DNA from: Chloroflexota bacterium
GTDB taxonomy: Bacteria > Chloroflexota > Dehalococcoidia > Dehalococcoidales > UBA5760
Direction of reading: 5' to 3'
Length of the DNA: 64,000 nt
Assembly: GCA_015222205.1 (NCBI GenBank)
Contig: JADFUW010000011.1
Span: 511 to 64,510, forward strand
Made by a program: the position numbers and the translations under genes. Below are positions 26,652 to 63,041 of this stretch, piece by piece; position 1 is the stretch's first letter; the number at the start of each line of letters is the position of its first letter. Under the pieces are notes generated by a model. That model made no database searches. It was not told where the DNA came from and worked only from the letters and a program-made list of their open reading frames with translations.

Positions 26652-26654
26652 ATA

Positions 26655-26726: not shown

Positions 26727-26807
26727 ATCTTTAAACCACGCCTGAGCCTCCCTCTATCCCCCTGTGCTCTCGCTCTCAGACGCAGTTATCATCTTAGGAA
26801 ATTTCTT

Positions 26808-26894: not shown

Positions 26895-26901
26895 TCAATT
26901 C

Positions 26902-26978
26902 TGGCAGGAGTGGGAGGACTCGAACCCCCGACCGGCGGTTTTGGAGACCGCTGCTCTTCCAAACTGAGCTACACTCCT
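26902..26978 (-). tRNA. tRNA-Trp (anticodon CCA), CCA encoded
   Basis: Minus strand AGGAGTGTAGCTCAGTTTGGAAGAGCAGCGGTCTCCAAAACCGCCGGTCGGGGGTTCGAGTCCTCCCACTCCTGCCA. Confidence 0.9.
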
Positions 26979-46163: not shown

Positions 46164-47357
46164 ATGTCTAAAAAGTCTGCAGTCGAACGGTTAGCCGAGC
46201 TTAATCCTGAAACCGAAATATGGTGGGACTCTTCGCCACTAATATACTCTAACTGGAAGAGGAAAATGCTCGATAAGGCAGCTCCCGAGGAATACACTCG
46301 CCTGGAGGAGCAATTAACCCGCTTATTCAACGAAGATGACCCTGCCAGCAGTCTAGTTCGCGGTGTGACCACTAACCCATCGCTATCACTCCAGGCAATT
46401 GAAGGGCGTCCCGACATCTGGATTCCCTGGGTCGACCAGTTAATTAAAGATAACCCTTATGCCGGTGTGGAAGTCCTGTTCTGGAAAACCTACCTTGAGG
46501 TCGTGCGTCGTGGCTCCGAGATGGTAAAGCCTATCTGGGAGGCATCAGACCACAAACTGGGATACCTCTCAGGGCAGGTTGACCCACGCAGTGTTTTCAA
46601 TGAAGAGCTCATGTTCAAGCAAGCCCTTGAACTCGCTGCCCAGAACCCAAACGTTATGGTTAAATGCCCTGGCAGCGCCGAGGGGATTCGCCTGCTTCGT
46701 CGCTTGACAGCAATGGGCATGGCTACTAATTGCACCCTAGCCTTTATTCTACCCCAGTTCGTGACCGTGATGGACGCAGTTCACTCAGGGCTAGTGGAAG
46801 CCAAGACCAATAATATTAATATGTACCGCTGGCGGTCGGTCATTACCCATATGTCCGCCCGCTACGAAGAGCGTGAGGCATTTGATGAGAGCGCTGCTGA
46901 AGTCGGTGTCAAACTGACCCTGGAAGATAAGCGCTGGGCAAGTATCGCCATTTTTCGTAAGGCATATAAAGTAGCTAAACGCCGTGGTTACCCAGGCAAG
47001 ATGCTCTTCTGCTCTATGCGTCGCGGTCCTATCGTTGACGGTGTTGAGCACATCTGGCACCTAGAGCAAGTAGCTGGTGGTAGCATAGTCTTTACTTGTC
47101 CTCCCGGCTTTCTGACCCAAGTGTGGGAGCTTAATAGCAACCTGGATTTCAAGCCAACCATTGAAGATGAGATTCCGCCCCAGGTTCTGGAAAAGTTGCT
47201 GCGGGTACCATACTTTGCCGAAGCCTATGAGGAAGAGATGGACCCCGCCAGGTATGGCACCCTTGCGCCCACAGTTTTCACAACTCAGCAGTTCTCCCAA
47301 GCAACCGAAAAGACGGTAGAATTTGTTCGCCGGCGCATTGCCACCGTACGTGGCTAG
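46164..47357 (+). CDS. Transaldolase-family protein (long form, 397 aa)
   Basis: IWWDSS, GVTTNPSLS and VMVKCPGSAEGI (Schiff-base Lys context) resemble class I transaldolases. Confidence 0.65.
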   Translation: MSKKSAVERLAELNPETEIWWDSSPLIYSNWKRKMLDKAAPEEYTRLEEQLTRLFNEDDPASSLVRGVTTNPSLSLQAIEGRPDIWIPWVDQLIKDNPYAGVEVLFWKTYLEVVRRGSEMVKPIWEASDHKLGYLSGQVDPRSVFNEELMFKQALELAAQNPNVMVKCPGSAEGIRLLRRLTAMGMATNCTLAFILPQFVTVMDAVHSGLVEAKTNNINMYRWRSVITHMSARYEEREAFDESAAEVGVKLTLEDKRWASIAIFRKAYKVAKRRGYPGKMLFCSMRRGPIVDGVEHIWHLEQVAGGSIVFTCPPGFLTQVWELNSNLDFKPTIEDEIPPQVLEKLLRVPYFAEAYEEEMDPARYGTLAPTVFTTQQFSQATEKTVEFVRRRIATVRG

Positions 47358-47418
47358 TCACCAGCGTAAGCCTAATTAACACATATGGTCACATAGTCAA
47401 AATAGAAAGGAGCAAGGT

Positions 47419-48066
47419 ATGCAGGAGCTGTCAATGGATGCTGTTGAGCTAGCGGTTAAGACGGTGGCAGACGTAGCCATTGCCAACGAAAAGTACTTTT
47501 CAGAACTGGATAGTGCCGCCGGAGACGCCGACTTCGGTGTTTCACTGGCCACCGGCTTTCGTGCTGTCATCAGTCAATGGGATGCAATAGACCGTTCTTC
47601 TATCGGTCTCTTTCTAATGAAAGTTGGTGTCATAATCACCAGTAACGTTGGTGGCTGCTCAGGACCAATTTGGGGTACCGCCTTCATGAGGGCAGGCACA
47701 ATGTCGAAGGACAAGACCTCGCTTATGCTCACTGACCTTGTAACCATGCTCCGTGCTGCTATCAAGGGTATCATGGCACGCGGCGGGGCTCAGCTAGGCG
47801 ACAAGACATTACTGGATGCCCTAGCTCCAGCCACGGACAAGCTTGAGGAATGGAGCCAAAAAGACACTCAGGACATTCTGGGTGCCCTTCAGGCAGCGAC
47901 CGGGATAGCGACTGAGACAATAGAGTCCACCCGCGGTTGGATTGCCAAACGAGGCCGCCAAGCCTTTACTGGTGAGCGCAGCATAGGTACCCTAGACCCA
48001 GGCGTTGTGGCTGTAGCCATCATGCTGCAGGCAGTTACCAAAGCCCTAAAGGATGCCTACGAATGA
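47419..48066 (+). CDS. dhaL: Dihydroxyacetone kinase subunit L (ADP-binding, Dak2 domain)
   Basis: LDSAAGDADFG, GGCSGPIWGTAF, GDKTLLDAL. Confidence 0.85.
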   Translation: MQELSMDAVELAVKTVADVAIANEKYFSELDSAAGDADFGVSLATGFRAVISQWDAIDRSSIGLFLMKVGVIITSNVGGCSGPIWGTAFMRAGTMSKDKTSLMLTDLVTMLRAAIKGIMARGGAQLGDKTLLDALAPATDKLEEWSQKDTQDILGALQAATGIATETIESTRGWIAKRGRQAFTGERSIGTLDPGVVAVAIMLQAVTKALKDAYE

Positions 48067-48148
48067 GAACCAGTAACAAAAGGGGTTCTTCAAGGGTTTA
48101 GATTTCAAAAAATTAATTTTTGGTCTTACCAATAAAGGAGGAAACATC

Positions 48149-49144
48149 ATGAAGAAATTTGTCAATGAGCCGAGCAATTTCGTCCACGAGATAATGGAGG
48201 GACTAGTTCTAGCCAATCCAGATAAGCTCAAGTATGTCCCTGATTACAACATCATCTACCGCGCCGATATGCCCAGGGATGATAAGGTCTCCATCATCCA
48301 GGGTTCCGGGAGCGGCCACGAACCAGCGCATATCATGCTTGTGGGACAGGGAATGCTTGATGCTGCTTGCCCAGGTAATGTCTTTGCCGCACCACCCATG
48401 GAATACTGCTACGAGTGTACCAAGCTCATGAACTCCAAGAAGGGCGTCCTTCACTTGATAAACAACTACCAGGGTGACCGTATGGTCTGGGATATGGCTC
48501 ATGAGATGGCAGAGGCCGACGGGATTAAGGTTGGTGTGGTTATTATTGACGATGATGTCGCCGTTCAGGATAGCACACACACGGTAGGCCGACGTGGCGT
48601 AGCCGGCAACTTCTTTGTCATCAAGGCTTGTGCTGCCGCCGCAGAACAAGGAGCTAGCCTTGAGGAACTGGTCGCCCTAGGTAACAGGGTCAACAGTGTC
48701 GTCCGCACCATGGGGGTAGCACTAACCTCCTGCACGCCACCAGCCAAGGGAGAGCCAATCTTTGATATTGCTGATGACGAGATAGAAATGGGCATCGGTA
48801 TCCACGGTGAACCGGGACGACGCCGTGCTAAGCTACAAGCCGCTGATGCTATCGTTGATGAAGTATTCCAGGCAGTCGCTAGCGACCTACCCTTCAAGAG
48901 GGGTGACCAGGTCAGCCTGATGATTAATGGCATGGGGGGCACCCCAATTAGTGAGCTCTACTTGCTATACCGCAAGGCAGCGCTGAACTGCAAAAACAGT
49001 GGCCTTGAAGTAGTTCGCAGCTATGTTGGCAATTACTGTACTTCTCTGGAGATGGCCGGCTTCTCGCTAACACTAATCCGCCTTGATGACAATCTCAAGC
49101 GTTTACTGGCTGCCCCAGCTGAGATTCCAATACGCGTCTTCTAA
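48149..49144 (+). CDS. dhaK: Dihydroxyacetone kinase subunit K (Dak1 domain)
   Basis: KKFVNEP, SGSGHEPAH, NYQGDRMVWDMA, IGIHGEPG. Confidence 0.9.
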   Translation: MKKFVNEPSNFVHEIMEGLVLANPDKLKYVPDYNIIYRADMPRDDKVSIIQGSGSGHEPAHIMLVGQGMLDAACPGNVFAAPPMEYCYECTKLMNSKKGVLHLINNYQGDRMVWDMAHEMAEADGIKVGVVIIDDDVAVQDSTHTVGRRGVAGNFFVIKACAAAAEQGASLEELVALGNRVNSVVRTMGVALTSCTPPAKGEPIFDIADDEIEMGIGIHGEPGRRRAKLQAADAIVDEVFQAVASDLPFKRGDQVSLMINGMGGTPISELYLLYRKAALNCKNSGLEVVRSYVGNYCTSLEMAGFSLTLIRLDDNLKRLLAAPAEIPIRVF

Positions 49145-49171
49145 TCCGCACATTACAGTTTTGCAAAGCAG

Positions 49172-49214
49172 GGAGGTTGCAACCGTAGATGAGATTGCAA
49201 CCTCCTCTTATTTT
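49172..49214 (+). terminator. Rho-independent terminator after dhaK (possibly bidirectional)
   Basis: GGAGGTTGCAA(12-nt loop)TTGCAACCTCC followed by TCTTATTTT. Confidence 0.7.
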
Positions 49215-49256
49215 GCTTATAGATTGGGTAAATAGCCCGGCTAGTGGGGGTGGGTC

Positions 49257-49333
49257 TGGTCGGGGTGAGAGGACTTGAACCTCCGACCTCAGCGTCCCAA
49301 ACGCTGCGCGCTAGCCAACTGCGCCACACCCCG
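49257..49333 (-). tRNA. tRNA-Pro (anticodon TGG), CCA encoded
   Basis: Minus strand CGGGGTGTGGCGCAGTTGGCTAGCGCGCAGCGTTTGGGACGCTGAGGTCGGAGGTTCAAGTCCTCTCACCCCGACCA. Confidence 0.9.
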
Positions 49334-49393
49334 CTAACAAGAATAAATATAACAAAGTGCCTGTTCAGGGTCAAGCCAATGGCTAGCTAGATT

Positions 49394-50128
49394 TCAGTCT
49401 CTACAGTCGGGGCAGATGTCAAACTCTTCTGGGGCCAAGCCGGCCTTCTTGGCTATGTAGTCAAGTTGCTTCTCCGGCGCCCAGTATTTACCACATTTAC
49501 TGCACTTCTTTAGTTTAAACTCTATCTTCTGCATCCTAGGATTAGGCATAGTTATAGTTCTGGTATCTCCGATATCCTCTAACCCTATAGCATCCACCGG
49601 ACAGATATAAGCACAGGAACCACAACCAATACAGGCATCCGGAGCCTCATAAAATGGGGAAGCCACCTGTCTATTAGTACCTCGATTGACCAAGCTGATG
49701 GCGCTAACACCGACAACTTCTTCACATGCCCTAACACATAAGCCACAAAGAATGCATTTCTTATCTTCCAGCCTGAAGGGTGTTTTATCAACACCCAGCT
49801 TACTGGCTAAATCCTGTACCGCCGCCAAGTCAGGGCATCTAGCTAGCAATAACTCCATTATAGTTCTGCGGTCATTCACCACCCTCTCGGTGTTAGTTTC
49901 CACAACAAGTCCCTCTTCTACCGGATAGAGACAAGAAGCTACCAATCTCCTTCGCCCCCGACGGGTAATCTCCACCATACACAGACGACAGGCACCATAT
50001 GGAGCCACTTCCTCATGATAGCACAGAGCCGGTATATAGATACCGTTATCTCTAGCTACCTCCAGTATTACTTTCCCCTCTTCAGCCTGGACATCTCGTC
50101 CGTCAATGGTTAATGTCAGCATCTTCAT
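49394..50128 (-). CDS. [2Fe-2S] + 2x[4Fe-4S] ferredoxin module homologous to the N-terminus of NuoG/HydA, without a catalytic domain
   Basis: 2Fe-2S pattern LCYHEEVAPYGACRLCMVE...ASC. CILCGLCVRACE and CIGCGSCAYICP. C-terminal CSKCG...CPDC ribbon. Only 244 aa. Confidence 0.75.
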   Translation of the reverse strand: MKMLTLTIDGRDVQAEEGKVILEVARDNGIYIPALCYHEEVAPYGACRLCMVEITRRGRRRLVASCLYPVEEGLVVETNTERVVNDRRTIMELLLARCPDLAAVQDLASKLGVDKTPFRLEDKKCILCGLCVRACEEVVGVSAISLVNRGTNRQVASPFYEAPDACIGCGSCAYICPVDAIGLEDIGDTRTITMPNPRMQKIEFKLKKCSKCGKYWAPEKQLDYIAKKAGLAPEEFDICPDCRD

Positions 50129-50134
50129 TTACCT

Positions 50135-51997
50135 TTATTCTACTTTTATGGCACCAAGCTTACATACATCATAGCAAGCACCACACTTGATGCACTTTTC
50201 CTGGTCTAAGACAACCGGCTCCTTTTTCCCTCTGGCCGTTATGGCTCCCGAGGGACAAGCCTTGACACAGAGTCCACATCCTGGACACTTCTCCTCGATA
50301 ATCTGATAGGTAATTAACTCCTTGCAGATGCCAGCCGGACACCTTTTCTCCTTAATATGGGCTTCATACTCATCCCGGAAATAGCGGATAGTAGTCAACA
50401 CTGGATTGGGGGCTGTAGCCCCTAGAGCACACAGTGAGCTGTCAATCAACACCGTCGAAAGGCGTTCCAATAGCTCAATATCCCCATCCTTTCCCCTACC
50501 CTCGGTGATGTCAGTTAGTATTTCCCGCATCCTTTTCAAGCCCTCACGGCAGGGAACACATTTACCGCATGACTCTCCCTCAAGAAAGCCAATGAAGTAC
50601 TTGGCAATATCCACCATGCAATTGCCCTCGTCCATTACAATCATCCCGCCCGAACCCATCATTGAGCCAGCCTCGGTTAGCTCATCAAAATCTACGGGTA
50701 AATCAAGTAAACTCTCGGGGATGACCCCCCCGGAGGGACCACCCGTCTGAACCCCCTTGAATTTCTTACCGTCAAGAATACCGCCACCGATATCATAAAT
50801 AATCTCCCTCAAGGTTATCCCCATCGGTACCTCCACCAAACCAGTATTGTTAACCTTGCCCACCAGAGAGAAAATCTTAGTTCCCTTGCTATTTTCGGTA
50901 CCTGTTTGGGTAAACCAATCAGCACCTTGATTTATTATTAGCGGGACATTAGCCCAGGTCTCTACATTATTCAGGGCGGTAGGTTTATCCCACAAACCCC
51001 GTTCAGTAGTATGGATATACTTTGCCCTCGGCTCGCCCGGTTTACCTTCCAGTGAAGCCATCAGCGCCGATGATTCACCACAGACAAAAGCCCCACCCCC
51101 CCTGTTTATCTTAATACTGAAGTCAAATCCAGAGCCCAGGATATTATTACCCAGAAGCCCATACTCCTCAGCCTGCTTAATAGCCAGCTGAACATTCTTT
51201 ACCGCCAGTGGATACTCATGGCGAACATAGATATAACCCTCATGGCCACCTATAGCATAGGCCCCGATTATCATCCCCTCCATAACACTATGCGGGTTGC
51301 CTTCCACCACACTTCTATCCATATAGGCACCCGGGTCACCTTCATCGGCATTACAGATAACATACCGCACGCCATCCGAGGATGCAGCATTCCGACAGGA
51401 TTCCCACTTGATACCGGTGGGGAAACCACCGCCACCACGCCCCCGCAAACCAGATTTCTTGACTTCATCGATTACCGCCTCAGGTGACATTTCAAAGAGC
51501 GCCTTACTCAATGCCGAGTAACCACCAACCGCTAAATAGTCCTCGATTAGGGTAGGGTCAATATAACCGTTATTACCAAAGACGAACCGCTTCTGTCTTT
51601 TATAGAATGGCACGTCAGGCTCATAGATTATTTTCTCGCCGGTATTGGGGTCAGTGTAGAGCAATCTATCAATGATATTATCCTTTAGAATGGTCTGCGA
51701 GACTATCTCAGGGATATCATCTACCCTTACCCGTTGATAGAAAATGTTCCTCGGCCTAATAACTACTAACGGTCCCCGTTCACAGAAGCCGTGGCAGCCG
51801 GTAGTCCTTACATCTACCTTGGAATCTAATCCCCGCTGCTTAACCTCTTCCCTAAAAGCACTAGCTACTTTTTCACACCCATAGGCATGACATCCGGTGC
51901 CGCTGCATATCGTTATGCACGGCTTATTAGGGTCTCGCTGGCTAGTTATTGTTTCTCTTATAGCCTCTAATTCAATAGGAGAGCTTAACCTCTTCAA
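50135..51997 (-). CDS. NuoF/HydB/HndC-like NAD(P)H-binding FMN iron-sulfur flavoprotein
   Basis: N-terminal thioredoxin-like 2Fe-2S (CSGTGCH...[11 protein letters not shown]), [30 protein letters not shown]-terminal [23 protein letters not shown]. Confidence 0.9.
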
Positions 51998-52017
51998 TAG
52001 CTACTCCTTCCCCATAA

Positions 52018-52488
52018 CTAAGTATAATTCTCCAACACACCTTTAACCTTCTCGGTCTTCATTTGCCCGAAGTATTCCCCATCAACTATTACCACCGGAC
52101 CTAAGGCACAAGCCCCAACGCAGTTAACCGTTTCCAGGGTAAATTCAAGGTCTTTGGTGGTTTCACCAGCCTTAATATCCAGGTCTCGCTCCATCGCCTC
52201 CAGAACCCGCACCGCTCCCCTAACATGGCAGGCTGTACCCAGGCACACATTAATTAAGTGGCGCCCCCGGGGCGTCAAACTCAACGCCTTGAAGAAAGTA
52301 GCGGCACTATAGACCCGACTCAATGGAACATCTAAGCCCTGGCTCACCTGCTCCAGGGTTTCCCGAGGCAAATAATTATACTCCGCCTGAATATCCTGCA
52401 AGATGGATACCAACATACCCTTATCACGCTGATAGTTATCTAGTACTGACACCACCCTTTTTTCTAACTGTTTAGCTTCTGGCTGCAT
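52018..52488 (-). CDS. NuoE/HydC/HndA-like [2Fe-2S] subunit
   Basis: LVSILQDIQ..., CLGTACHVRGA, VNCVGACALGPVV. Its ATG overlaps the porB 3' end by 25 nt, preceded by AAGGAGAAGG. Confidence 0.9.
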   Translation of the reverse strand: MQPEAKQLEKRVVSVLDNYQRDKGMLVSILQDIQAEYNYLPRETLEQVSQGLDVPLSRVYSAATFFKALSLTPRGRHLINVCLGTACHVRGAVRVLEAMERDLDIKAGETTKDLEFTLETVNCVGACALGPVVIVDGEYFGQMKTEKVKGVLENYT

Positions 52489-53405
52489 GCTACCTTCTCC
52501 TTGAGTCTAGCATAATCCACATTCACCCTATTCTGAATCTCCAGCACCTTTTCCTCAGACAGATGACGAAATCTACCCTGCAACTTCAGATAATCCCGAA
52601 CCGGTCTTAGCTGGGGCACATCAATAGTTAATTTATATTTACCATTCTCAATCTCATATAGCGGGAATATCCCCGTCTCCACCGCCAGACGACCTATCCT
52701 GACGGTTAAATCAGGGGCACATCGCCAACCAGTAGGGCAAACCGACAGGATATGAATATAAGCTGGACCAGGGGTAGATACACCCTTCTCCACCTTAGCC
52801 ATTAAATCAAAAGGATAGCTTGGACAGGCAGTAGCCACATAGGGTATATCATGGGCAGCGGCAATAGCCGGCATATTCTTCTTCCAGGTAACCTGCCCGA
52901 TGCTCAGTTTACCCGCCGGAGCCGTGGTCGTCGAGGCGCCATAAGGAGTAGCTGAAGACCTTTGTATCCCGGTATTCATATAGGCTTCATTATCAAAGCA
53001 GATATAGAGAAAATCATGCCCTCTTTCTAAGGCTCCAGATAGCGCCTGAAGCCCAATATCACTGGTACCGCCATCACCCGCCATGGCGACTACCCTTATC
53101 TCTTTAGCCGGGCGCTTACCCTTTCTCACCATGGCTTTTAAACCAGCCTCCACACCCGACGCGGTGGCAGCAGCATTCTCAAACAGGGTATGAATCCAAG
53201 GTAAACGCCAGGAAGTATAGGGAATTGGTGTAGCAATCACCTCCATACAACCGGTAGCGTTAACTATTATCGCATCCCGACCCAGTGCCTTACAGGCCTG
53301 TCTTACCGCCAAAGCCTCGCCACAACCAACACACGCCCGGTGACCGGGAGCGAAGCTCTCCCTCTTAGCTATTAATTTGGGGACAAAAACAGCGTATTTT
53401 TCCAT
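52464..53405 (-). CDS. porB: Pyruvate/2-oxoacid:ferredoxin oxidoreductase beta subunit (TPP-binding)
   Basis: GHRACVGCGEA, GDGGTSDIGLQALS, TGWR. Confidence 0.9.
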   Translation of the reverse strand: MEKYAVFVPKLIAKRESFAPGHRACVGCGEALAVRQACKALGRDAIIVNATGCMEVIATPIPYTSWRLPWIHTLFENAAATASGVEAGLKAMVRKGKRPAKEIRVVAMAGDGGTSDIGLQALSGALERGHDFLYICFDNEAYMNTGIQRSSATPYGASTTTAPAGKLSIGQVTWKKNMPAIAAAHDIPYVATACPSYPFDLMAKVEKGVSTPGPAYIHILSVCPTGWRCAPDLTVRIGRLAVETGIFPLYEIENGKYKLTIDVPQLRPVRDYLKLQGRFRHLSEEKVLEIQNRVNVDYARLKEKVACSQKLNS

Positions 53406-54583
53406 TATTCCCTCACCCCAAACATCTCAAATTCCTGCTCGCTTCCCGCCTGTGAAATCTCAATACCCCGATTAATTATCTCCCTAAAGCCAGATGGAGA
53501 AATAACCCTGCCCCCCAAACCACCAACAAAGCCGATAACCTTTGGCCTCTTGTCTAAACCATATAAGGCTGACCTAATCTCAGAGGCGACCGGCCCCCCT
53601 GGTCCACCAAAGGAAAGGGCCCTATCCAGCACAAGGAGAGTATCAGCATCCTTAACCGCCTGGCGGAGTTCAGCAAAAGGAAATGGTCGCCATAAGCAGA
53701 GCTTTATCAGCCCCACCTCCTTACCCTCTTCCCGCATAGAATCCACAGCAGACATCGCCGTCTCGCTGAAACTACCCATAGCCAGCAGAATTACCTTAGC
53801 CCCTTCACAACGGTAGCTTTCTACCGGGGAGTAGTAGCGCCCGAAGATATCACCAAACTCCTTCCAAGCCTGAAGAATCACCTCTTTAGCCGCAGTCAAA
53901 TTTACCTGCTGCGCTTTTTTTGTCTCGGTATATATATTAGGTGGGGCAAGACCACCCATAGTTATCGGCCTGTCGGGGTCTAATGGCAAAGGGTACTCAT
54001 GTGGAGGCAGGAATTTATCAACCTCGCTCGACTCCAGGATATATATAGGTTCAATCACATGCGTCAGTTGAAATCCATCCAGATGAATCATTACCGGAAG
54101 TAAAACACGCCGGTCCTCGGCAATGCGAAAGGCACAGAGCACATTATCAAAGGTTTCCTGACCGTTAGCGGCGAATATTTGAATCCAGCCGGTGTCACGG
54201 ACAGCCATCACATCAGAGTGGTCACCCCAGATACTTATCGGTGCTGACAAAGCCCGGTCAGCCACGGCCATAACTATGGGTAGCCGCATAAATGAAGCCA
54301 CATATAATACCTCGTGCATCAGCTCTAATCCTTGCCCGGCAGTAGCCGTAAATGTTCTCGCTCCAACAGCAGACGCTCCCAAGCAAGCACTCATCGCCGA
54401 ATGCTCAGATTCAACCGGAATATAAGAAGCATCCAGCTCACCGTTAGCTACCAGCTCAGAAATATCCTCCACGATGTGGGTTTGTGGGGTAATGGGGTAA
54501 GCCGATACTACATCCACATTAGCCAGTTTGACGGCTATGGCAATAGAGCGGGAAACCTCTATCCCTACCCTTTGTGTCATCAT
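53405..54583 (-). CDS. porA: Pyruvate/2-oxoacid:ferredoxin oxidoreductase alpha subunit
   Basis: I chose the start MMTQRVGIEV (ATGA overlap with the porD stop). AYPITPQT and SEHSAMSAC motifs. Confidence 0.9.
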   Translation of the reverse strand: MMTQRVGIEVSRSIAIAVKLANVDVVSAYPITPQTHIVEDISELVANGELDASYIPVESEHSAMSACLGASAVGARTFTATAGQGLELMHEVLYVASFMRLPIVMAVADRALSAPISIWGDHSDVMAVRDTGWIQIFAANGQETFDNVLCAFRIAEDRRVLLPVMIHLDGFQLTHVIEPIYILESSEVDKFLPPHEYPLPLDPDRPITMGGLAPPNIYTETKKAQQVNLTAAKEVILQAWKEFGDIFGRYYSPVESYRCEGAKVILLAMGSFSETAMSAVDSMREEGKEVGLIKLCLWRPFPFAELRQAVKDADTLLVLDRALSFGGPGGPVASEIRSALYGLDKRPKVIGFVGGLGGRVISPSGFREIINRGIEISQAGSEQEFEMFGVRE

Positions 54584-54870
54584 TCCTCCTCTACCATAGT
54601 GATAGCCTTTGTCCAGCACTCGCGGGCACAGATACCACATCCCTTGCAGTAAAATAGATTGGCTTCAAAAAAACCCTCTTCGTTCGGCTCAATACATCCC
54701 TCAGGACAAAAAATGGCACAAAGACCACACTTTATGCACCTACTATGCTCATGGACAGGCCTTTGTGTCCGCCAGTCCCCGGTTTGATACTGACTGGCAT
54801 TTCCGGGCTCGGTCATTACGGCACCAATCTCAAGGTCCTTCCAGGTTAGTTCGCCCCCTGGTTTAGTCAA
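54580..54870 (-). CDS. porD: Pyruvate/2-oxoacid:ferredoxin oxidoreductase delta subunit (2x[4Fe-4S])
   Basis: CIKCGLCAIFCPEG and CKGCGICARECW, 96 aa. Confidence 0.9.
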   Translation of the reverse strand: MTKPGGELTWKDLEIGAVMTEPGNASQYQTGDWRTQRPVHEHSRCIKCGLCAIFCPEGCIEPNEEGFFEANLFYCKGCGICARECWTKAITMVEEE

Positions 54871-55445
54871 CTTTCCTGCCCCCCTACTGTAGTTTCCTTA
54901 TACGCCTTTTGCATGGCACTAATATTCCTGTCTGCCAAACGACCAAACCGATGCCTCAGCGGTTCAAGTAAGGACTCTAATTTAGTAACCTCCCTGGCTT
55001 TTAGCAGAGCTCCAATCATAGAGGTATTAACAATTGGCACCCCAAGTAACTCCCGAGCAATCTTAGTAGCGTCAACTGTCGCCAGTGCACAGTTAAGACT
55101 AAATTCCTCTCTAACTTCCCTTGCTTCCTTTGGTGTATTAATCACCAGAATCCCATTACTTTTAAGTCCAGAAGCAACATCAACAACACGCAGTAAACCG
55201 GGGTCAAGCACGACTACTATGTCAGGTTCATCAATTTCAGCCCTTACCCAGATAGGTTTATTGCTATCTATCCTGACAAAGGCTACGACTGGGGCTCCCC
55301 TCCTTTCCGCACCAAAAGCAGGGAAGGCTTGAGCATACTTGTTCTCATTTATCGCCGCTTGGGCTAACAGTTCAGCAGAGGTAACCGCTCCTTGACCACC
55401 ACGACCATGCCACCTAATCTCAACAAGCCCTGCCGTATCTATCAC
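54867..55445 (-). CDS. porG: Pyruvate/2-oxoacid:ferredoxin oxidoreductase gamma subunit
   Basis: EIRWHGRGGQGAVT...FGAERRGAP. GTG start after GGGAGG. Confidence 0.9.
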   Translation of the reverse strand: MIDTAGLVEIRWHGRGGQGAVTSAELLAQAAINENKYAQAFPAFGAERRGAPVVAFVRIDSNKPIWVRAEIDEPDIVVVLDPGLLRVVDVASGLKSNGILVINTPKEAREVREEFSLNCALATVDATKIARELLGVPIVNTSMIGALLKAREVTKLESLLEPLRHRFGRLADRNISAMQKAYKETTVGGQES

Positions 55446-55473
55446 TAAAGACCTCCCAAATTACCATAAAAAA

Positions 55474-55546
55474 CGCCCCTGGAGCGACTTGAACGCTCGC
55501 ACCCAGCTCCGGAGGCTGGCGCTCTATCCACCTGAGCTACAGGGGC
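55474..55546 (-). tRNA. tRNA-Arg (anticodon CCG), CCA not encoded
   Basis: Minus strand GCCCCTGTAGCTCAGGTGGATAGAGCGCCAGCCTCCGGAGCTGGGTGCGAGCGTTCAAGTCGCTCCAGGGGCG followed by TTTTTT. It lies 28 nt upstream of porG. Confidence 0.9.
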
Positions 55547-55552
55547 TGTCTC

Positions 55553-55655
55553 TATATTAACGCTTCTATACGTAACTCGGCAAGGGGTTATCCTTATACT
55601 AACACTTCTGGACGTGACTCGACAAGGGGTTATCCTTATATTAACACCGAACACG
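55553..55655 (-). repeat. About 2.5 tandem copies of a 42-nt unit, each carrying a -35/-10-like pair
   Basis: Copies at 55553-55594, 55595-55636 and a partial copy from 55637. Minus-strand unit: GTGTTA(A/G)TATAAGGATAACCCCTTG(C/T)CGAGT(T/C)ACGT..AGAA. The proximal TTGCCG-18 nt-TAATAT ends 7 nt before the tRNA-Arg 5' end. Confidence 0.8.
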
Positions 55656-55702
55656 TGATTCAGAAAACTGCCCAATCAGCTACCTAACGAAGAGGGCTAA
55701 AC

Positions 55703-56134
55703 CTACAGCTTAGGCAGAAATAGATACTGTGTTGTTGTTCTAAGCCGTTTCCTTACTACAGCTAGCTGCGGTTTATATATCTTAATCCTCTCTTGCCTTG
55801 GAGTTATAGGCATATCAAGAATCTTAGCCATAACCTTCTCCTCCACCTCTCCGGGGCATTTTACCACCATTTCATCCTGCCCGACACTTACCTCTATAAG
55901 TATCGGCAGCAGTAACGCCTTTTGCTCATCGGTGTCTATCAAGCTGGCAAGATACTTCAGCTCTTTACGGCTGAACAGATGAGTGCTGCCGTCCCCACAC
56001 ACGACACAAGGATATTCCTCGCCCAGTAAATCCGATAGTGGTTTTTGCTTACCGGGCAGATGGGCATTCACTACCCTGAGTTCGCCCTTTAGGCTTTCCT
56101 GAAGCAATCTTTCGTAGGGTAACTCGCTAGCCAT
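55703..56134 (-). CDS. UPF0216/DUF61-family protein (family otherwise typical of Archaea); start at ATG 56134 (track gives TTG 56152)
   Basis: NAHLPGKQKPLSDLLGEEYPCVVCGDGSTHLFSRKELKYLASL...LLLPILIEV...PGEVEEKVMAKIL...VVRKRLRTTTQYLF matches my recollection of Pyrococcus/Methanocaldococcus UPF0216 proteins. Confidence 0.6.
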   Translation of the reverse strand: MASELPYERLLQESLKGELRVVNAHLPGKQKPLSDLLGEEYPCVVCGDGSTHLFSRKELKYLASLIDTDEQKALLLPILIEVSVGQDEMVVKCPGEVEEKVMAKILDMPITPRQERIKIYKPQLAVVRKRLRTTTQYLFLPKL

Positions 56135-56138
56135 CTTT

Positions 56139-56774
56139 TCATCTCTGCTCAAGCAGTACTTTTACCCGTTTTAATCGTGACTTCTCTTCTCTATCCCGTT
56201 CCTCAAACTTCATATACAGGTATTTTATCGTCGTCTGCAGTCCGGGGATTACCAGATACTCCAGGGCATTGAGTATCCTCTTTGTCCTGTTTATTTCCCT
56301 GCCCAGCAGTTCCAGGCTCCTCTGGAGTTCAGCCAGCTCAACAATAGCCTCCAGGCACTTCTCGGATAGCCCGGCCGTCTGGTCTAACCACGAAGATGTA
56401 TCCGTCAGGCTATATCCCCTTACCCCTGGCTCGGCTTCCCTTAACTCAAAAGCAGGAATTCTTACCCCGCCTACATTTCTCAAGCCGGCGACGATGCCTA
56501 AATCCCTCTCGGTGGCTATTAGTTCCTTCTCCAGGGCTATGTAGCCGTGATACCCAGCAGCAATGGATAATACTTTATAGGTCTGGGAGAAATCATCCAG
56601 CAGTTTCTGCTTAGCCTCTACCGTCTGCCTAGCTATCTGCAAGAATTCCAGGATCAGTATTGACACCCTGTCCTTTATTATCTTCTGTATTCTAGTAGCT
56701 AAGCTAAGCCGCCGCCTGAGCTTTATCAGTTCAATCTTGGTTGGTCTGGTTACTCTAATAACCTGCCGCGACAT
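56139..56774 (-). CDS. atpD: A/V-type ATP synthase subunit D
   Basis: RPTKIELIKLRRRLSLATR... coiled-coil central-stalk protein, 211 aa. Confidence 0.9.
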   Translation of the reverse strand: MSRQVIRVTRPTKIELIKLRRRLSLATRIQKIIKDRVSILILEFLQIARQTVEAKQKLLDDFSQTYKVLSIAAGYHGYIALEKELIATERDLGIVAGLRNVGGVRIPAFELREAEPGVRGYSLTDTSSWLDQTAGLSEKCLEAIVELAELQRSLELLGREINRTKRILNALEYLVIPGLQTTIKYLYMKFEERDREEKSRLKRVKVLLEQR

Positions 56775-56824
56775 TTCTCTACCTTTAAGCCTTCTTCAAA
56801 TATACTTGGCCAGTTAATCTCTAA

Positions 56825-58228
56825 TTAACTCTTCTCCGAGTACTTGGGGAGATACTTTTTAATTAGCGCCTCACTGATTAGTTTCAGGTCCTCCTCAGGT
56901 AAGGCTGAGAATAGCTCCCAACCGATGTCTAAGGTCTTCTCCACCTTTCTTTTCTCAAGCTCGCCCTGCGATATAAATTCCCTTTCAAATCTATCAGCAT
57001 TTGTCAGGTATACTTTGTCCCTCTCGCCCAATGCCTCAGCCCCGATAATAGTTGATATTTCCCTAAGGTTACAACCCTCAGCATAGGCAGCATAGAGCTG
57101 CATGAAGACATTGTTGTGGTCATCCCTGGTTTTGTCCGGCCCAATACCCTCTTTCATCATTCGGGAAAGTGACAGAAAAACATCTATTGGCGGGTATATC
57201 CCCTTTCTTTCCAGCTCCCGGGAAAGAACAACCTGACCCTCTGTTATGTAGCCGGTCAGGTCAGGTATCGGATGTGTGATGTCATCATCAGGCATGGTCA
57301 GGATGGGCATGATAGTCATAGAACCCTCTTGTCCCAGAATTCGTCCCGCCCGCTCATACATTGTCGCCAGGTCAGTATACATATACCCCGGATAGCCTCT
57401 TCGCGATGGTATCTCCTCCCGCATTGCCGAGAGTTCACGAAGAGCCTCACAATAATTGGTCATGTCGGTAAGGATAACTAACACGTGCATGCCTTGCTTC
57501 CAGGCCAAGTACTCACCCGCCGTCAGGGCTAACCTGGGTGTTGATATTCGCTCGATAACCGGGTCGGAGGCGGTGTTGATAAAGGCTACGGTTCTCCCCC
57601 GGGCGCCGGTCTGCTCCAGACCCTTCATAAAAAAGGCGGCATCGTCGTAGCTAATCCCAATAGCGGCAAACACAATGGCAAACTGCTCTTCTTTCCCCTT
57701 AACTGAAGCCTGCCTGATTATCTGCGCCGCAATTCGGTTGTGAGGTAGTCCAGAGCCACTGAATATGGGTAGTTTCTGCCCCCTGACCAGGGCATTCAGT
57801 CCGTCTATCGCCGAGATACCAGTTTCAATAAATTCAGCGGGAGGCTCACGACCAGCCGGATTGATGAGTCCGCCACTAACATCCAGATAATCTTCCGGGA
57901 TTACCGATGGACCCCCATCTATCGGCTCGCCCATCCCGTTGAATATCCTGCCCATGATGTCCCTGGATACCGCTAACTTCAGGGTCTCACCCTTGCACCT
58001 CACCCTGCTGCCGACCAGGTCTACTTCGCTAACCCCGCCAAACACCTGAACTATAGTTAGTTCCTTACTGATGTCTATTGCCTGGCCGCGCTTCACCTCG
58101 CCATTAGAGAGCCAAACATCGACTATCTCGCCATATTTTATATCGGGTATGCTTTGGGCAACCAGCAAAGAACCTTTAGTTCGGCTAATGGCTTGCGTTT
58201 CTTTTATATAGAGTGAAGATGAACTCAT
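56825..58228 (-). CDS. atpB: A/V-type ATP synthase subunit B
   Basis: I chose the start [10 protein letters not shown] (ATGA overlap with the atpA stop). [39 protein letters not shown]. Confidence 0.95.
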
Positions 58229-59976
58229 AAGGCGCCTCCTCTCTGGGTAACCAAGCCCGTTTCCATCTCCGACCACAACTCTTTAATCCTCTCGGGAGCA
58301 GCATCATTGGGTATATCCTTCATTCTGGATATTCGCGGCACTATTGGAGATGAGCGGATATCGGCCACCGTTACTCCTGAATCCAACATCTTCTGAGCCA
58401 ACTCATAAAACCTGATTATTGTCTTGAGCATCAGCTGTGATTTGGCAGGCAGGCAGTAGGTATCAACATCATGGTAGGCACTCTGCATCAGAAAATCTTC
58501 GCGTATCATCCTGGTTACCAAAAGTACCAGCTTGTCCCCTTCGGGGAGGGCCTCAGGACCTACCAGTCTGACAATCTCCTCCAGCTCAGCCTCTTGTTGA
58601 AGAAGCTTCAAGGCAGTAGCTCGGGTATCATCCCATTCCGGACTGACTTCAGACCACCAGTCTCTAACCCCATCAACATAAAGGCTATAACTGGTGAGCC
58701 AATTTATGGCCGGAAAATGCCTTTTGTTAGCCAGCGCCGTATCCAGGGCATAAAAGGCGTCTACGATTCGGAGTGTATTTTGAGTTACCGGCTCACTAAA
58801 ATCAGCCCCCGGAGGGCTGACTGCCCCGGCTAATGTTACTGAACCCTGTCTCTGCGGCCTACCCAGACACTCCACCAACCCCGCCCTCTCGTAAAACGAA
58901 GAAAGCCGTGAGCCCAGATAAGCAGGAAAACCCTCCTCACCGGGTATCTCTTCCAGCCGGCCACCAATCTCCCTCATAGCTTCCGCCCACCTTGAGGTTG
59001 AGTCAGCCACCAACATAACATCGTAACCCATATCCCGGAAGTATTCCGCCAGGGTAATGCCAACAAAGATGCTGGCTTCACGAGCCACCACCGGCATATT
59101 GGAGGTATTGGCGATAAATATCTCTTTCTCCTGTAGTAACTGGCCGGAGGTTGGTTCTTTGAGCCTTCTAAAGCTATAAAGCACATCAGCCATCTCATTG
59201 CCTCTCTCGCCACAGCCAACATAAATGTTTAGCTGTGTCTGAGCCCATCGGGCAAGCTGCTGCAGTGCCACCGTCTTTCCGGTACCAAAGCCACCGGGTA
59301 TAGCCGCTTTACCGCCAAGGGCTAGTGGAAACATATAGTCTAGAATTCTCATGCCGGTAACCAGCAATCTTGAGGGGGCAAACCTCTGCTTATAGGGCCT
59401 GGGCTTTCTCACCGGCCATTTCTGCATCATAGTAAGCCCTTTTACTTCGCCGTTGTCCTCTAAGCGGGCTACCGGTTCCTCAACAGTATACTCGCCGCCA
59501 TATATCTCCTTTATCACGCCCTTCATACCCATCGGCACCATTACCCGGTGCTCAACAAGGTGGGTCTCGGGCACAGTACCTATTATGTCACCTTCACTAA
59601 CCCTGTCTCCAACCTTAGCCGTAGGTGTGAATGACCATTTTTTGTCACGCGGTAGTGAAAATGCTTTAGCCCCCCGTGTCAGAAATGAGCCCTTCTCCAT
59701 CAAAACAGTCAGGGATTTCTGCAGCCCGTCATAGATGGAACCAACAACCCCGGGACCTAACTCGGCAGTTAGAATCGCCCCTGTCCCTCTAATCGTCTCC
59801 CCGACTTTCAGCTCCAGGGTATCCTCATGCGCCTGGATTATCGCCTTATCCTCCTCCAGACCTATTACCTCACCGACCAGACCCTCACTGCCTATCTCAA
59901 CAATCTCATAAACCTTAGCCCCTCTCATATCCTCGCCGATAACGACCGGACCTGAGATGCGCCATATTTTTCCCAT
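58225..59976 (-). CDS. atpA: A/V-type ATP synthase catalytic subunit A
   Basis: Walker [33 protein letters not shown], plus the A-subunit-specific insert. Confidence 0.95.
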
Positions 59977-60000
59977 ATCTTGCCACCTCCGTAAGCACTC

Positions 60001-60354
60001 TTAGATTTCTATATCAAAGCCGATAAATTTCCTGATATAAGCCTTGTAATACTGAGAAACATCATCGTAGCGCGTGCCATACTTTGATGGCACCTCAATG
60101 ATTATCGGGGGCGAAGCCCTCTTCTCTTTAACTTGAGCTACCAAATCTTCAATATATCTCATATAGTCTTCTAATATCACTATTATGCCGATGTCCGGCT
60201 CATCTATTACCTCGGTTAGCGCCTGCCTGACCTCTCCACTGATGTCATGGTCGCCCGTTATCATACGGTAGCAATGCACACCGGCCAGCCTCAGTCCGTT
60301 GACCAAGTCTTCATCCCCGATAACAGCTATGTCCAAATGCTTGATATTTATCAT
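60001..60354 (-). CDS. atpF: A/V-type ATP synthase subunit F
   Basis: 117 aa. IAVIGDEDLVNGLRLAGV. Confidence 0.85.
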   Translation of the reverse strand: MINIKHLDIAVIGDEDLVNGLRLAGVHCYRMITGDHDISGEVRQALTEVIDEPDIGIIVILEDYMRYIEDLVAQVKEKRASPPIIIEVPSKYGTRYDDVSQYYKAYIRKFIGFDIEI

Positions 60355-61388
60355 GATGAGAACAGCAGATACCCCTCTATTTCGCTCACTGGTATCTTAT
60401 CAAATATGGCCTTTAGTACCAGCCTCAGGTTTTTTATTTCAACCTCCTTAATGATTAGATACCAGGCTATCACCAAAGGGGTCATTACCCTCGGCGACAA
60501 CATCTCCCTGAGTAACCGGAACCTGTGTTTGTCAATGACTTCCTCTACAACAATAATACTCTTCGTTCTATCATAACTAGCTACTACTTCCTCAGCTATA
60601 TCCCGATATTGAGTACCAGCTAATATGCTAGGGATATCGGCCAATTTATGTGATATCAAGTCTGTGGCCACTTTGTCAGGAATCATATACCCGCCACTGA
60701 TGATAAATTCTTCGGCTTGAGAGCCTGTGCCCTCAATGATAGCCCTACTTATAAGTTGTAAATTCGCCATATCCATGATTACGCCAGAGGCTTTAGCCAG
60801 TAATGAGCCATCATTAATATCTTTAGACAGGTTCAGTAAACCTTGATAATACTCCCGGTCTAATTTAGCCTCGGTCAGGAATTTTGCCTTTGCCTCTCCG
60901 GCGACATATTCCTCAAGGATAGAGGCACAGGCCCCTAAATTGCATTCAATCAGTATCTTTATAACATCGCCAACGTCTGCCGCATTGGAAAGCTCACCCA
61001 ACAATCCACGAGTGTGAATAATCCCCACCGGTATCATGTTAGCCTTCTTACCTGCTGAGATACCCTGTAAAGCAGCTTTGATATTTATGACATCATACTT
61101 CACTCGGTATGCGTTCAATATCTCATGCATGTCAGCCGGCATTAGCTTTAAGCATTCCAGCCACTCAAGACACTCACCAAAATACTGCCACAAATACTTA
61201 TCTGAATCATCAAAAGTTTTAATAGGCTCCTCTGCAAGGTATCTGCCTATATCAGTGTCTTTAACAATCTCCAATATATCCAGCACGGTGGATACCCTTG
61301 ATATCCTATTTATATGGTCAGAGGTTATAATTTTAGCCTCAGCCCCCTTTAGGTAGGCTGAGATAAAAGCACATTCCGCATCAGGCAA
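60351..61388 (-). CDS. atpC: A/V-type ATP synthase subunit C (V-type d homolog)
   Basis: 345-aa all-helical protein between E and F. YLKGAEAKIIT... and ...IKNLRLVLKA patterns. Confidence 0.8.
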   Translation of the reverse strand: MPDAECAFISAYLKGAEAKIITSDHINRISRVSTVLDILEIVKDTDIGRYLAEEPIKTFDDSDKYLWQYFGECLEWLECLKLMPADMHEILNAYRVKYDVINIKAALQGISAGKKANMIPVGIIHTRGLLGELSNAADVGDVIKILIECNLGACASILEEYVAGEAKAKFLTEAKLDREYYQGLLNLSKDINDGSLLAKASGVIMDMANLQLISRAIIEGTGSQAEEFIISGGYMIPDKVATDLISHKLADIPSILAGTQYRDIAEEVVASYDRTKSIIVVEEVIDKHRFRLLREMLSPRVMTPLVIAWYLIIKEVEIKNLRLVLKAIFDKIPVSEIEGYLLFSS

Positions 61389-61397
61389 AGCTAGCTC

Positions 61398-61988
61398 CTA
61401 TAAACCCTTAAAGAGTTCCCTACCTATTTCAGGTAGTAATCTGGGTAGTAACATTTCCAGCCTAGTCTCATAGGTATTATCTACTCTGATTCTTCCATTA
61501 ATATCCTCAACTATAACTCCTCCGGCGCAATCATACTCCTTGATTTCCACAATCTTACCAGTTAATCCCTTATCACCCTCCAGAAGCTTTGGTACCATGC
61601 TTACATCTTTAGGTGAAACATAAACCCGTCCCTCACTAATACCAAGTGTAGCCGCAGCTTCCTTAATCAGACCCATAAGCAAGTTTTTATCACTTGAAGT
61701 TTCTAACAACCTCTTTTTTACACTGCCGATTAGCTCATCAATTACATCAGCCTTAGCCCGCGATAACTCCTGGCGTGCTTTCACTAAAGCCTGAGCCTCT
61801 ATTCGGGCAGCCTCTTCCCTGGTTTGCTGAAGAATCTTACCCTTCTCCTCTTCCAACCTGGCTACCCGCTGTTTTTTAGCCTGCTCAACTTCTTTCCCAG
61901 CCTTATCCTCAGCCTGCTTTATTATAGTTTCTGCCTCGGCCCTTACTTTATCTAAAACAGCTTCGCTTATTTTCTCCATTCCTATCAT
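61398..61988 (-). CDS. atpE: A/V-type ATP synthase subunit E (peripheral stalk)
   Basis: 196 aa. Long charged N-terminal helix (AEAETIIKQAEDKAGKEVEQAKKQ) and a globular C-terminus. Confidence 0.85.
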   Translation of the reverse strand: MIGMEKISEAVLDKVRAEAETIIKQAEDKAGKEVEQAKKQRVARLEEEKGKILQQTREEAARIEAQALVKARQELSRAKADVIDELIGSVKKRLLETSSDKNLLMGLIKEAAATLGISEGRVYVSPKDVSMVPKLLEGDKGLTGKIVEIKEYDCAGGVIVEDINGRIRVDNTYETRLEMLLPRLLPEIGRELFKGL

Positions 61989-62001
61989 AAGATACCCCTC
62001 A

Positions 62002-62472
62002 TTACATAAGTCCTAGCATGCTTAGTGCCATTATAGTAAACACTAGTCCCAGAACACCTATGAGTTCAACAAACACCGCTAGCATCATGGAGTTGGTTAA
62101 TATCGCCCCTTTTGTCTTGGGCAAGAGCGAGATACCTGAAGCACACACGGAACCCTGGTAGGCTCCCGACCAAAGTTCGGCAGAGGCAGCAATAATCCCG
62201 CAGGCAAACACAGCAAAACCGCCGCCGCCTTCTGGGGGCAAATTAGGAACTACTGACGTTATAATCAGTATCAATATGATGAGCCCATAAAAGGTTTGTG
62301 TCATTGGTAAAGATGACAATACAATGACATTTCTAAGTTGCCCTGGTGCCTCAACCAGTGTAGCCACTCCATTGGAGGCAGCTCTAGCAATTCCTATCGC
62401 TGAGCCAGCTAAACCACCAGCTAAAGCTATGGCTCCTCCTAGAACTGCCAGAGATTCCGGACTGATTATCAT
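62002..62472 (-). CDS. atpK: A/V-type ATP synthase proteolipid subunit K, copy 1 (double hairpin, 4 TM)
   Basis: 156 aa, colinear with Enterococcus hirae NtpK. SLPMTQTFYG, AYQGSVCASG, AVFVELIGVLG. Confidence 0.9.
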   Translation of the reverse strand: MIISPESLAVLGGAIALAGGLAGSAIGIARAASNGVATLVEAPGQLRNVIVLSSLPMTQTFYGLIILILIITSVVPNLPPEGGGGFAVFACGIIAASAELWSGAYQGSVCASGISLLPKTKGAILTNSMMLAVFVELIGVLGLVFTIMALSMLGLM

Positions 62473-62554
62473 CCTGCTATTCCCCCTTTTCTTAGATTTT
62501 CTAAAATCATGCTACTTATTAAAAATAGTTGCTCTGGTTTCACCAAGCCCTAGC

Positions 62555-63025: not shown

Positions 63026-63041
63026 CCTTCTACACCCCTTC

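Follow-up and report, generated by a model that had tools for sequence, protein, structure and literature searches.

A Por-Bfu gene cluster of an uncultured Dehalococcoidales bacterium, predicted to link a four-subunit pyruvate oxidoreductase to an electron-bifurcating core, and its modular relatives

The Bfu family of HydABC-like electron-bifurcating enzymes was defined by Schut et al. in 2022 (PMC9304861). One of its groups, "Por-Bfu (A-G)", is described there as the combination of four subunits of pyruvate:ferredoxin oxidoreductase (POR) with BfuABC; the 12 Por-Bfu sequences are of Type 2, with BfuB of clade 45 (also 35 and 44), and their BfuA contains the clusters A1, A2, and A4 only. In Dehalococcoides mccartyi 195, the Por-Bfu genes lie with one tRNA gene on either side and are expressed at similar levels (PMC9304861). 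The 2025 structural study of Wor-Bfu (PMC12318220) adds that BfuA of Por-Bfu possesses a Zn finger and is devoid of the C-terminal helix of WorA. Here, a cluster of this type is described from an uncultured Chloroflexota bacterium. It is located within a stretch of 64,000 nucleotides (GenBank assembly GCA_015222205.1, contig JADFUW010000011.1, positions 511 to 64,510), which is called the window in the following and whose numbering is used throughout. By analogy with characterized relatives, the seven genes porGDAB and bfuCBA probably encode an archaeal-type PorABDG wired to a flavin-based electron-bifurcating BfuABC core. The cluster as such, including the flanking tRNAs and co-expression, was already published in 2022 (PMC9304861), and the window provides one more member. 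The original prediction, which had been made from the DNA sequence and had proposed POR itself as the catalytic partner of a NuoE/NuoF/HydA-N-like trio, is supported by comparative genomics; it coincides with the published Por-Bfu hypothesis and is not new.

Between positions 55445 and 49394 of the minus strand, seven open reading frames (ORFs) in the order porG-porD-porA-porB-bfuC-bfuB-bfuA were confirmed by ORF listing and translation:

54867..55445, minus strand: porG (PorC, gamma), 192 amino acids; GTG start behind GGGAGG; Pfam POR, 2.8e-41

54580..54870, minus strand: porD (delta, 2x[4Fe-4S]), 96 amino acids; TTG start overlapping the porG stop; Pfam Fer4 families

53405..54583, minus strand: porA (alpha), 392 amino acids; ATG start behind GGAGGA, sharing ATGA with the stop of porD

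52464..53405, minus strand: porB (beta, thiamine pyrophosphate (TPP) and [4Fe-4S]), 313 amino acids; Pfam TPP_enzyme_C

52018..52488, minus strand: bfuC (NuoE/HydC-like [2Fe-2S] subunit), 156 amino acids; Pfam 2Fe-2S_thioredx, 2.1e-47

50135..51997, minus strand: bfuB (NuoF/HydB-like flavoprotein), 620 amino acids; TTG start; Pfam and PDB matches

49394..50128, minus strand: bfuA (HydA-N/WorA-like adaptor), 244 amino acids; Pfam Fer2_4 and 2x[4Fe-4S]; WorA match

The four por genes are joined by overlapping stop and start codons, as had been read originally, with TTGA at the porG/porD, ATGA at the porD/porA, and TAATG at the porA/porB junction. Likewise, bfuC does start 25 nt inside the 3' end of porB, and the start of this NuoE-like gene is preceded by AAGGAGAAGG. 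Gaps of 20 nt and 6 nt are found at the bfuC/bfuB and bfuB/bfuA junctions, respectively. Non-ATG starts are used by bfuB and porD (TTG) and by porG (GTG); the true start of porA is the ATG at position 54583, the mechanical ORF start at 54640 falling inside porD. A separate promoter or terminator at the junction of porB with the NuoE-like gene had been named at the outset as an observation that would speak against coupling of the two modules. In a sigma-70/terminator consensus scan of positions 49000-56500, promoter-like matches were fewer than in shuffles, terminator-like matches were only weak and intragenic, and the porB/bfuC junction contained no promoter- or terminator-like match.

The alpha/beta/gamma/delta domain set of the archaeal/Thermotoga-type four-subunit PorABDG is complete according to Pfam, with POR_N (3.3e-73) and PFOR_II (1.4e-26) in PorA, and pyruvate models are the top NCBIfam match for all four subunits. 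PorG scores 225 bits with NF006321 (pyruvate ferredoxin oxidoreductase gamma; cutoff 225) and PorB 422 bits with NF008819 (pyruvate synthase PorB; cutoff 405). The best match of PorA is PorA_Arch with 484 bits, under the cutoff of 550, while PorD reaches 110 bits with PorD_Arch (cutoff 120) and 102 bits with the subfamily model TIGR02179 (cutoff 60).

The proteins encoded downstream of porB exhibit the features of the Bfu core. The top PDB matches of BfuC, namely, 8a6t_C, 7t2r_C, 9mqx_C, and 9n5u_C, are all C subunits of bifurcating enzymes. BfuB, predicted originally as a 620-amino acid NuoF/HydB-like protein with a thioredoxin-like [2Fe-2S] domain, a flavin mononucleotide (FMN)/NADH site, and further Fe-S clusters, was recovered as such with Pfam and NCBIfam, the Pfam domains being 2Fe-2S_thioredx (residues 21-101), Complex1_51K (179-352), SLBB, NADH_4Fe-4S (463-547), and two copies of Fer4 (564-617). 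This is the layout of the Bfu architecture, with an N-terminal [2Fe-2S], the FMN/NADH domain, a [4Fe-4S], and a C-terminal 2x[4Fe-4S]. The best PDB match is HydB of the NiFe enzyme of Acetomicrobium mobile (7t2r_B, 2e-245), followed by WorB (9mqx_B, 1e-241), and BfuB also resembles the HydB proteins 8a6t_B and 7q4v_B. According to PMC9304861, a conserved site comprising three Cys residues and a His residue (C438, H525, C531, and C536 in the A. mobile NiFe-BfuB) is present in all 1,558 Bfu sequences; in the alignment of the window BfuB to 7t2r_B, all four residues are found, as C460, H547, C553, and C558. The supplement of the same paper gives the Bfu motifs ADEGDPGA[F/Y]MDR and GAFVCGE, the latter containing Phe at the position taken by Tyr in non-bifurcating homologues. 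The window BfuB carries Bfu-type NADH and FMN motifs, the FMN motif with Phe and not Tyr; its motifs are almost the same as those in the "Dm Por" rows of the published alignment, and every feature by which the supplement separates Bfu from non-bifurcating NuoF homologues is found in it.

These signatures bear on the question of whether the enzyme could be a non-bifurcating, NAD+-dependent pyruvate oxidoreductase, in which all electrons would pass via BfuA and BfuB to NAD+, ferredoxin not being obligatory. Such a reaction, comparable to that of the NADH-dependent phenylglyoxylate dehydrogenase PadEFGHI, would be thermodynamically easy (from -500 mV to -280/-320 mV), NAD-linked 2-oxoacid:ferredoxin oxidoreductases (OFORs) provide a precedent, and the Por subunits show secondary NCBIfam matches to PadE/F/G/I. 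The Pad scores, however, are far under the cutoffs, and a PadH-type subunit is missing; furthermore, the extra N- and C-terminal Fe-S domains of BfuB, its His/Cys3 site, and the Phe of its FMN motif are those of the bifurcating class, and Wor-Bfu, a characterized relative, reduces neither acceptor alone (PMC9304861). A purely NAD+-dependent enzyme is, thus, regarded as quite improbable.

The last gene product, BfuA, contains the clusters [2Fe-2S] A1 and [4Fe-4S] A2 and A4, followed by a C-terminal CxxC...CxxC Zn finger, and terminates at CPDCRD right after this finger without a C-terminal helix. It is devoid of the His-ligated [4Fe-4S] segment of approximately 40 residues and of any catalytic domain. 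With the 247-amino acid WorA (9mqx_A), it aligns from end to end including the Zn finger (E = 7e-46), and this full-length match to a solved protein fixes its predicted fold; the match to HydA1 (8a6t_A) is split into two pieces around the missing segment of the His-ligated cluster. Its 16 ligand Cys (4+8+4, for the [2Fe-2S], the two [4Fe-4S], and the Zn finger) are invariant in 65 full-length homologues, across which Cys98 is not conserved. In the original prediction, the 244-amino acid protein had been equated with the N-terminus of HydA/NuoG and described as lacking an H-cluster or molybdopterin domain; the absence of these domains stood up to analysis, while the protein is not a plain HydA/NuoG N-terminus.

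On these features, too, depends whether bfuCBA could represent the missing NADH-oxidizing N-module (NuoEFG) of a complex I with 11 subunits whose genes lie elsewhere, with adjacency to por by chance. Isolated "NuoEF(G)" operons whose role is unclear are mentioned in Chloroflexi genome papers (PMC3971608, PMC5736913). Against such an assignment, the 244-amino acid BfuA is without the His-ligated (N5) cluster and the whole molybdopterin-like C-terminal domain of NuoG; the best NuoF model scores 483 bits with BfuB, with the cutoff at 559, and Bfu-type extra domains are present. Moreover, family searches with 39 ORFs of the window, including seven operon proteins, two neighbors, and 20 others, revealed no nuo membrane genes, and the por linkage is conserved across phyla. 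The complex I module was rejected on the defining features of NuoG and NuoF, the probability left to it being close to nil.

For the assessment of gene linkage, one genome per GTDB species was searched with the BfuA-like protein, and the seven window proteins were mapped by tblastn onto the resulting 80 loci. The closest loci belong to metagenome-assembled genomes of Dehalococcoidales/Dehalococcoidia, with BfuA identities of 60-82%; the best match (82%) is on a 3-kb contig, and values of 69-72% are found on longer contigs. Loci with the identical seven-gene order number seven in Dehalococcoidia (L002-L005, L007, L009, L010) and four in Desulfobacterota (L018, L020-L022), and in each of these 11 porB and bfuC either overlap or are separated by no more than 36 nt. 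The seven-gene arrangement is far beyond chance, because the same order recurs in these 11 other genomes of two phyla. In three other lineages, the order is permuted to porDAB-bfuCBA-porG (L023/L024) or porGDA-bfuCBA-porB (L025), with por genes on both sides of the trio, an arrangement in which chance adjacency would be hard to maintain. POR is present in 18 of the 63 loci that have at least 5.5 kb upstream of bfuA. The recurrent linkage, including the permuted orders, supports POR as the partner of the trio. Location of the trio beside a hydrogenase or formate dehydrogenase gene in relatives had been named as a possible counter-observation; the trio of this clade is found next to neither and instead adjoins por across phyla. 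In a neighbor-joining tree of the BfuB sequences of these loci, the POR-linked sequences form two groups, a Desulfobacterota-type and a Dehalococcoidia group, and the window BfuB is placed with other POR-linked Dehalococcoidia sequences; a partner-less Dehalococcoidia cluster is nested beside the latter group.

Arrangements other than that of the window were also encountered. Stand-alone BfuCBA trios occur in Dehalococcoidales (L006, positions 6549-10720; also L014 and L008), with 64% BfuA and 71% BfuB identity to the window; the L006 trio follows a gene for a Fur-family regulator and has no catalytic partner gene nearby. In L008, L034, L035, L040, and L051, a single contig carries two Bfu-type trios no more than a few kb apart, and GltD-like genes are found near the paired trios of L035, L040, and L051. 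In L013, L015, L017, and L019, the slot between tRNA-Arg and tRNA-Pro holds porGDAB, a gene for a 646-amino acid protein, and one for a BfuA-like protein (53-56% identity), with no NuoE/NuoF-like genes (example: L015, 8042-9982). L011 is listed among the loci of this variant, and the gene arrangement of L052 (Syntrophales) is the same judging from gene order alone. The 646-amino acid protein combines NADH_4Fe-4S (the C-terminal 4Fe-4S domain of NuoF), Fer4_20, and a GltD/NfnA-type Pyr_redox_2 domain, and its best PDB matches are the GltD-type parts of NfnA (9n5u_A) and of 9bov_A. The variant looks like an in situ swap of BfuCB for an NAD(P)H module with the adaptor being kept; no description of such a swap at the por locus was found in the literature searched. 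Finally, a full VorB-type OFOR set adjoins a BfuCBA-type trio in 29 loci, counted separately from the 18 POR loci. This cluster was seen in Zixibacteria, Ignavibacteria, Planctomycetota, Acidobacteriota, and others (within L029-L078; e.g., L049, 4234-11178); the four phyla named are not listed for Por-Bfu in PMC9304861. It comprises nine genes, encoding a 251-amino acid protein without a family match, a small 2x[4Fe-4S] delta subunit, alpha, beta, and gamma subunits, BfuC, BfuB, BfuA, and a 142-amino acid Fe-S protein resembling the N-terminus of PadI. Its alpha subunit scores 520 bits with NF005507 (cutoff 399), and the VorB-linked BfuB sequences form one clade; judged from these sequences, another OFOR lineage is connected here to a sister clade of BfuB.

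The same comparison bears on whether the window encodes two separate, co-expressed enzymes, that is, a ferredoxin-dependent POR and a soluble BfuABC-like NADH:ferredoxin oxidoreductase that recycles its ferredoxin, the coupling being metabolic only. The stand-alone trios with domain-less BfuA in related Dehalococcoidales (L006, L014, L008) would fit this arrangement, as would PorD, which represents a ready ferredoxin-type exit route, and the replacement of BfuCB by a GltD-like NAD(P)H module at the same locus, according to which the pyridine-nucleotide part is exchangeable. On the other hand, the interleaved permuted orders and the translational overlap point to co-assembly, and a Bfu core supplied with only NAD(H) and ferredoxin would have no third redox couple. 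BfuA with its invariant Zn finger stays beside POR despite the swap of BfuCB, as would be expected of a POR-bound adaptor, and in Wor-Bfu, the homologous WorA is physically inserted into the catalytic module (PMC12318220). Two separate enzymes are, therefore, considered unlikely, and co-assembly of PorABDG with BfuABC in one Por-Bfu enzyme is preferred.

The cluster is bracketed by two tRNA genes, and its flanks contain the following elements:

55553..55647, minus strand: tandem repeat, 2.3 copies of a 42-nt unit (Tandem Repeats Finder, 86% matches), directly upstream of tRNA-Arg

55474..55546, minus strand: tRNA-Arg(CCG) (ARAGORN; Rfam, 61 bits), 3' end 28 nt before the porG start

49257..49333, minus strand: tRNA-Pro(UGG) (ARAGORN, Rfam), 60 nt downstream of the bfuA stop

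49173..49206, minus strand: 13-bp GC-rich hairpin (RNA fold -32.2 kcal/mol, z = -4.4 versus shuffles)

The 28-nt interval between tRNA-Arg and the start codon of porG contains nothing but a T-run and the ribosome-binding site. In 11 Dehalococcoidia loci, tRNA-Arg(CCG) is located approximately 20-40 nt ahead of porG, and in the orthologous Dehalococcoidia loci a sigma-70-like promoter is found upstream of tRNA-Arg and not between the tRNA and porG; the tRNA probably forms the 5' leader of the operon transcript. Upon reading of the sequence, every copy of the 42-nt repeat holds sigma-70-like hexamers (TTGyCG-18 nt-TAATAT/TAGTAT), and the repeats probably provide the promoter region for the entire unit; the consensus scan did not flag them as a promoter on the minus strand. 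They may be a duplicated promoter for tRNA-Arg and the operon. A "terminator" call adjoining porG was rejected, since it corresponds to the T-arm and acceptor end of tRNA-Arg. At the other end, tRNA-Pro is kept at its position in most Dehalococcoidia loci. The hairpin sits between it and the convergent dhaK; its T tail is weak, and it is probably the end of the transcription unit, acting as a bidirectional terminator. A permissive Rfam scan of the operon returned the two tRNAs only, with no riboswitch or leader found. In the simplest reading, tRNA-Arg, the seven genes, and tRNA-Pro would all be carried on a single transcript.

On the analogy of the structures of Wor-Bfu and HydABC, electrons in Por-Bfu would start at the TPP site of PorA/PorB, enter the [4Fe-4S] of PorB, and proceed via the two [4Fe-4S] of PorD to the clusters of BfuA. 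The latter would serve as an adaptor without a catalytic domain, with its Zn finger as docking element, and would deliver the electrons to the bifurcation site of BfuB/BfuC, composed of FMN and nearby clusters. There, one branch would lead to NAD(H) and the other to ferredoxin at the C-terminal 2x[4Fe-4S] of BfuB. HydABC operates at a stoichiometry of 2:1:2, on the basis of which the net reaction would be 2 pyruvate + 2 CoA + NAD+ + 2 Fd(ox) <-> 2 acetyl-CoA + 2 CO2 + NADH + 2 Fd(red), where Fd is ferredoxin. In the reverse direction, NADH and reduced ferredoxin would be combined to carboxylate acetyl-CoA. Pyruvate synthesis, in which half of the electrons would be derived from NADH and reduced ferredoxin would be spared, is the likely direction here, because the Mvh/Hdr/MetF-type genes of the window suggest a Wood-Ljungdahl lifestyle. 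If pyruvate is kept low, the pyruvate couple can, by estimate, lie between NADH and ferredoxin, which makes a ferredoxin-sparing confurcating pyruvate synthase plausible in the window organism. This role of Por-Bfu was already proposed by Schut et al. (PMC9304861).

Several points weigh against this interpretation. The pyruvate couple (E0' approximately -500 mV) can reduce both NAD+ and ferredoxin directly (PMC9304861), so that bifurcation would not be thermodynamically required in the oxidative direction. PorD is in principle able to pass electrons to free ferredoxin without BfuA, and the existence of stand-alone BfuCBA trios, such as that of L006 with 71% BfuB identity, implies that the trio can be encoded apart from POR. 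Pyruvate is a likely rather than a proven substrate, since PorA and PorD fall below their NCBIfam equivalog cutoffs. In the literature searched, no enzymology, purification, or complexome data on a Por-Bfu or Por-NuoEF complex were found; complex formation and bifurcation are predicted by analogy with characterized relatives.

The occurrence of the GltD-type swap and of the VorB-type clusters suggests that the wiring of OFORs to BfuA extends further, and is of a more modular kind, than the 12 Por-Bfu sequences of 2022 would indicate. Put forward tentatively, and with considerable doubt, OFOR-BfuA might be a general modular wiring of 2-oxoacid oxidoreductases to pyridine nucleotides, in which BfuA would be the dedicated adaptor and the nucleotide module would be exchangeable; the window enzyme would then be an NADH- and ferredoxin-confurcating pyruvate synthase for acetyl-CoA-based carbon assimilation, co-transcribed with tRNA-Arg.

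As for the genomic neighborhood, an A/V-type ATPase operon, assigned from translations alone, is located directly upstream of tRNA-Arg (55703-63926, minus strand). It includes two tandem, similar genes for 156-amino acid proteolipids (62002-62472 and 62555-63025); a 211-amino acid ORF (56139-56774) is the last gene of the presumed operon and is followed by the gene for a DUF61 protein (55703-56152), as confirmed by Pfam. Positions 1133-13513 of the plus strand encode both subunits, small and large, of an Mvh-type [NiFe] hydrogenase, together with a flavoprotein that resembles HdrA and ends in a 2x[4Fe-4S] tail, an MvhD-fused Fe-S protein, and a protein similar to the C-terminal part of MetF (DUF5981), followed by HypF, HypD, and HypE-like maturation genes. 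These genes hint at a bifurcating complex of the Hdr/Mvh/MetF type belonging to the Wood-Ljungdahl pathway. Convergent with the end of the Por-Bfu unit are genes that encode a transaldolase-family protein, DhaL (Dak2), and DhaK (Dak1) (46164-49144, plus strand); for this lineage, the presence of a dihydroxyacetone kinase comes as a slight surprise. Other window genes encode the glycine-cleavage P-protein, Dxr, RseP, and IspG, and a cluster of six genes for tRNAs (Gly, Gln, Leu, Gly, Leu, Trp) is found within 900 nt at 26086-26978 on the minus strand. The window organism looks like a hydrogen- and C1-oriented anaerobe and not like Dehalococcoides itself.

If Por-Bfu functions as proposed, the acetyl-CoA/pyruvate node would be linked directly to NAD(H) and ferredoxin by flavin-based electron bifurcation, and models of carbon assimilation and redox balance would change for Dehalococcoidia, a class that matters for bioremediation and abounds in subsurface sediments, and for syntrophic Desulfobacterota. 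The present survey is of value in showing that the linkage has a far wider range and a greater modularity than is apparent from the 12 sequences listed originally; the modular variants, such as the swap to an NADPH-type module, may be more novel than the window cluster itself, and Por-Bfu remains a worthwhile biochemical target.

Compared with known systems, the window cluster is closest to the predicted Por-Bfu enzyme of D. mccartyi 195 and relatives, with which it shares the seven genes, the organism class, the slot between two tRNAs, the A1/A2/A4-type BfuA, and the BfuB motifs. It derives from a different, uncultured Dehalococcoidales lineage and has A/V-type ATPase and Mvh/Hdr-type genes as neighbors; mechanistically, nothing is different. 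Wor-Bfu (WorABCSL) of A. mobile (9mqx, PMC12318220) is a characterized bifurcating aldehyde oxidoreductase. The similarities amount to 7e-46 for WorA/BfuA, 1e-241 for WorB/BfuB, and 8e-40 for WorC/BfuC, so that the window BfuB resembles, by its PDB match, the clade-45 member WorB, and the logic of a separate low-potential catalytic module plugged into BfuABC is shared. The catalytic module of the window, however, is a TPP-dependent POR and not the tungstopterin protein WorL with the polyferredoxin WorS, and the C-terminal helix by which WorA docks the nanowire is missing from its BfuA.

HydABC of the [FeFe] type (7p5h, 8a6t, 7q4v) and NiFe-HydABCSL (7t2r) possess a highly similar BfuB/BfuC core, whereas the window BfuA has neither the H-cluster domain nor the His-ligated [4Fe-4S] of HydABC, and the operon is without hydrogenase genes. 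Identity with [FeFe]-hydrogenase HydABC was rejected, Fe_hyd_lg_C being absent and FeFe_hydrog_A6 scoring 146 bits (cutoff 765) with the N-terminus only. The phenylglyoxylate dehydrogenase PadEFGHI (NF045762-NF045766) resembles the window enzyme in being a multisubunit OFOR that feeds NAD+, and in the secondary Por matches to PadE/F/G/I; the NAD module of the window, in contrast, is a NuoEF-type Bfu core and not a PadH-type flavoprotein. This system was rejected on scores of 163, 77, 317, and 241 bits for PadE/F/G/I (cutoffs 300, 150, 700, and 700, respectively), with no PadH-like gene in the operon. Nfn-Bfu (NfnABC, 9n5u), finally, shares the BfuBC core, and the GltD-type NADPH domain of its NfnA resembles the 646-amino acid protein of L013, L015, L017, and L019. 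A GltD-type domain is not part of the window cluster, whose third substrate would be pyruvate/acetyl-CoA in place of NADP(H).

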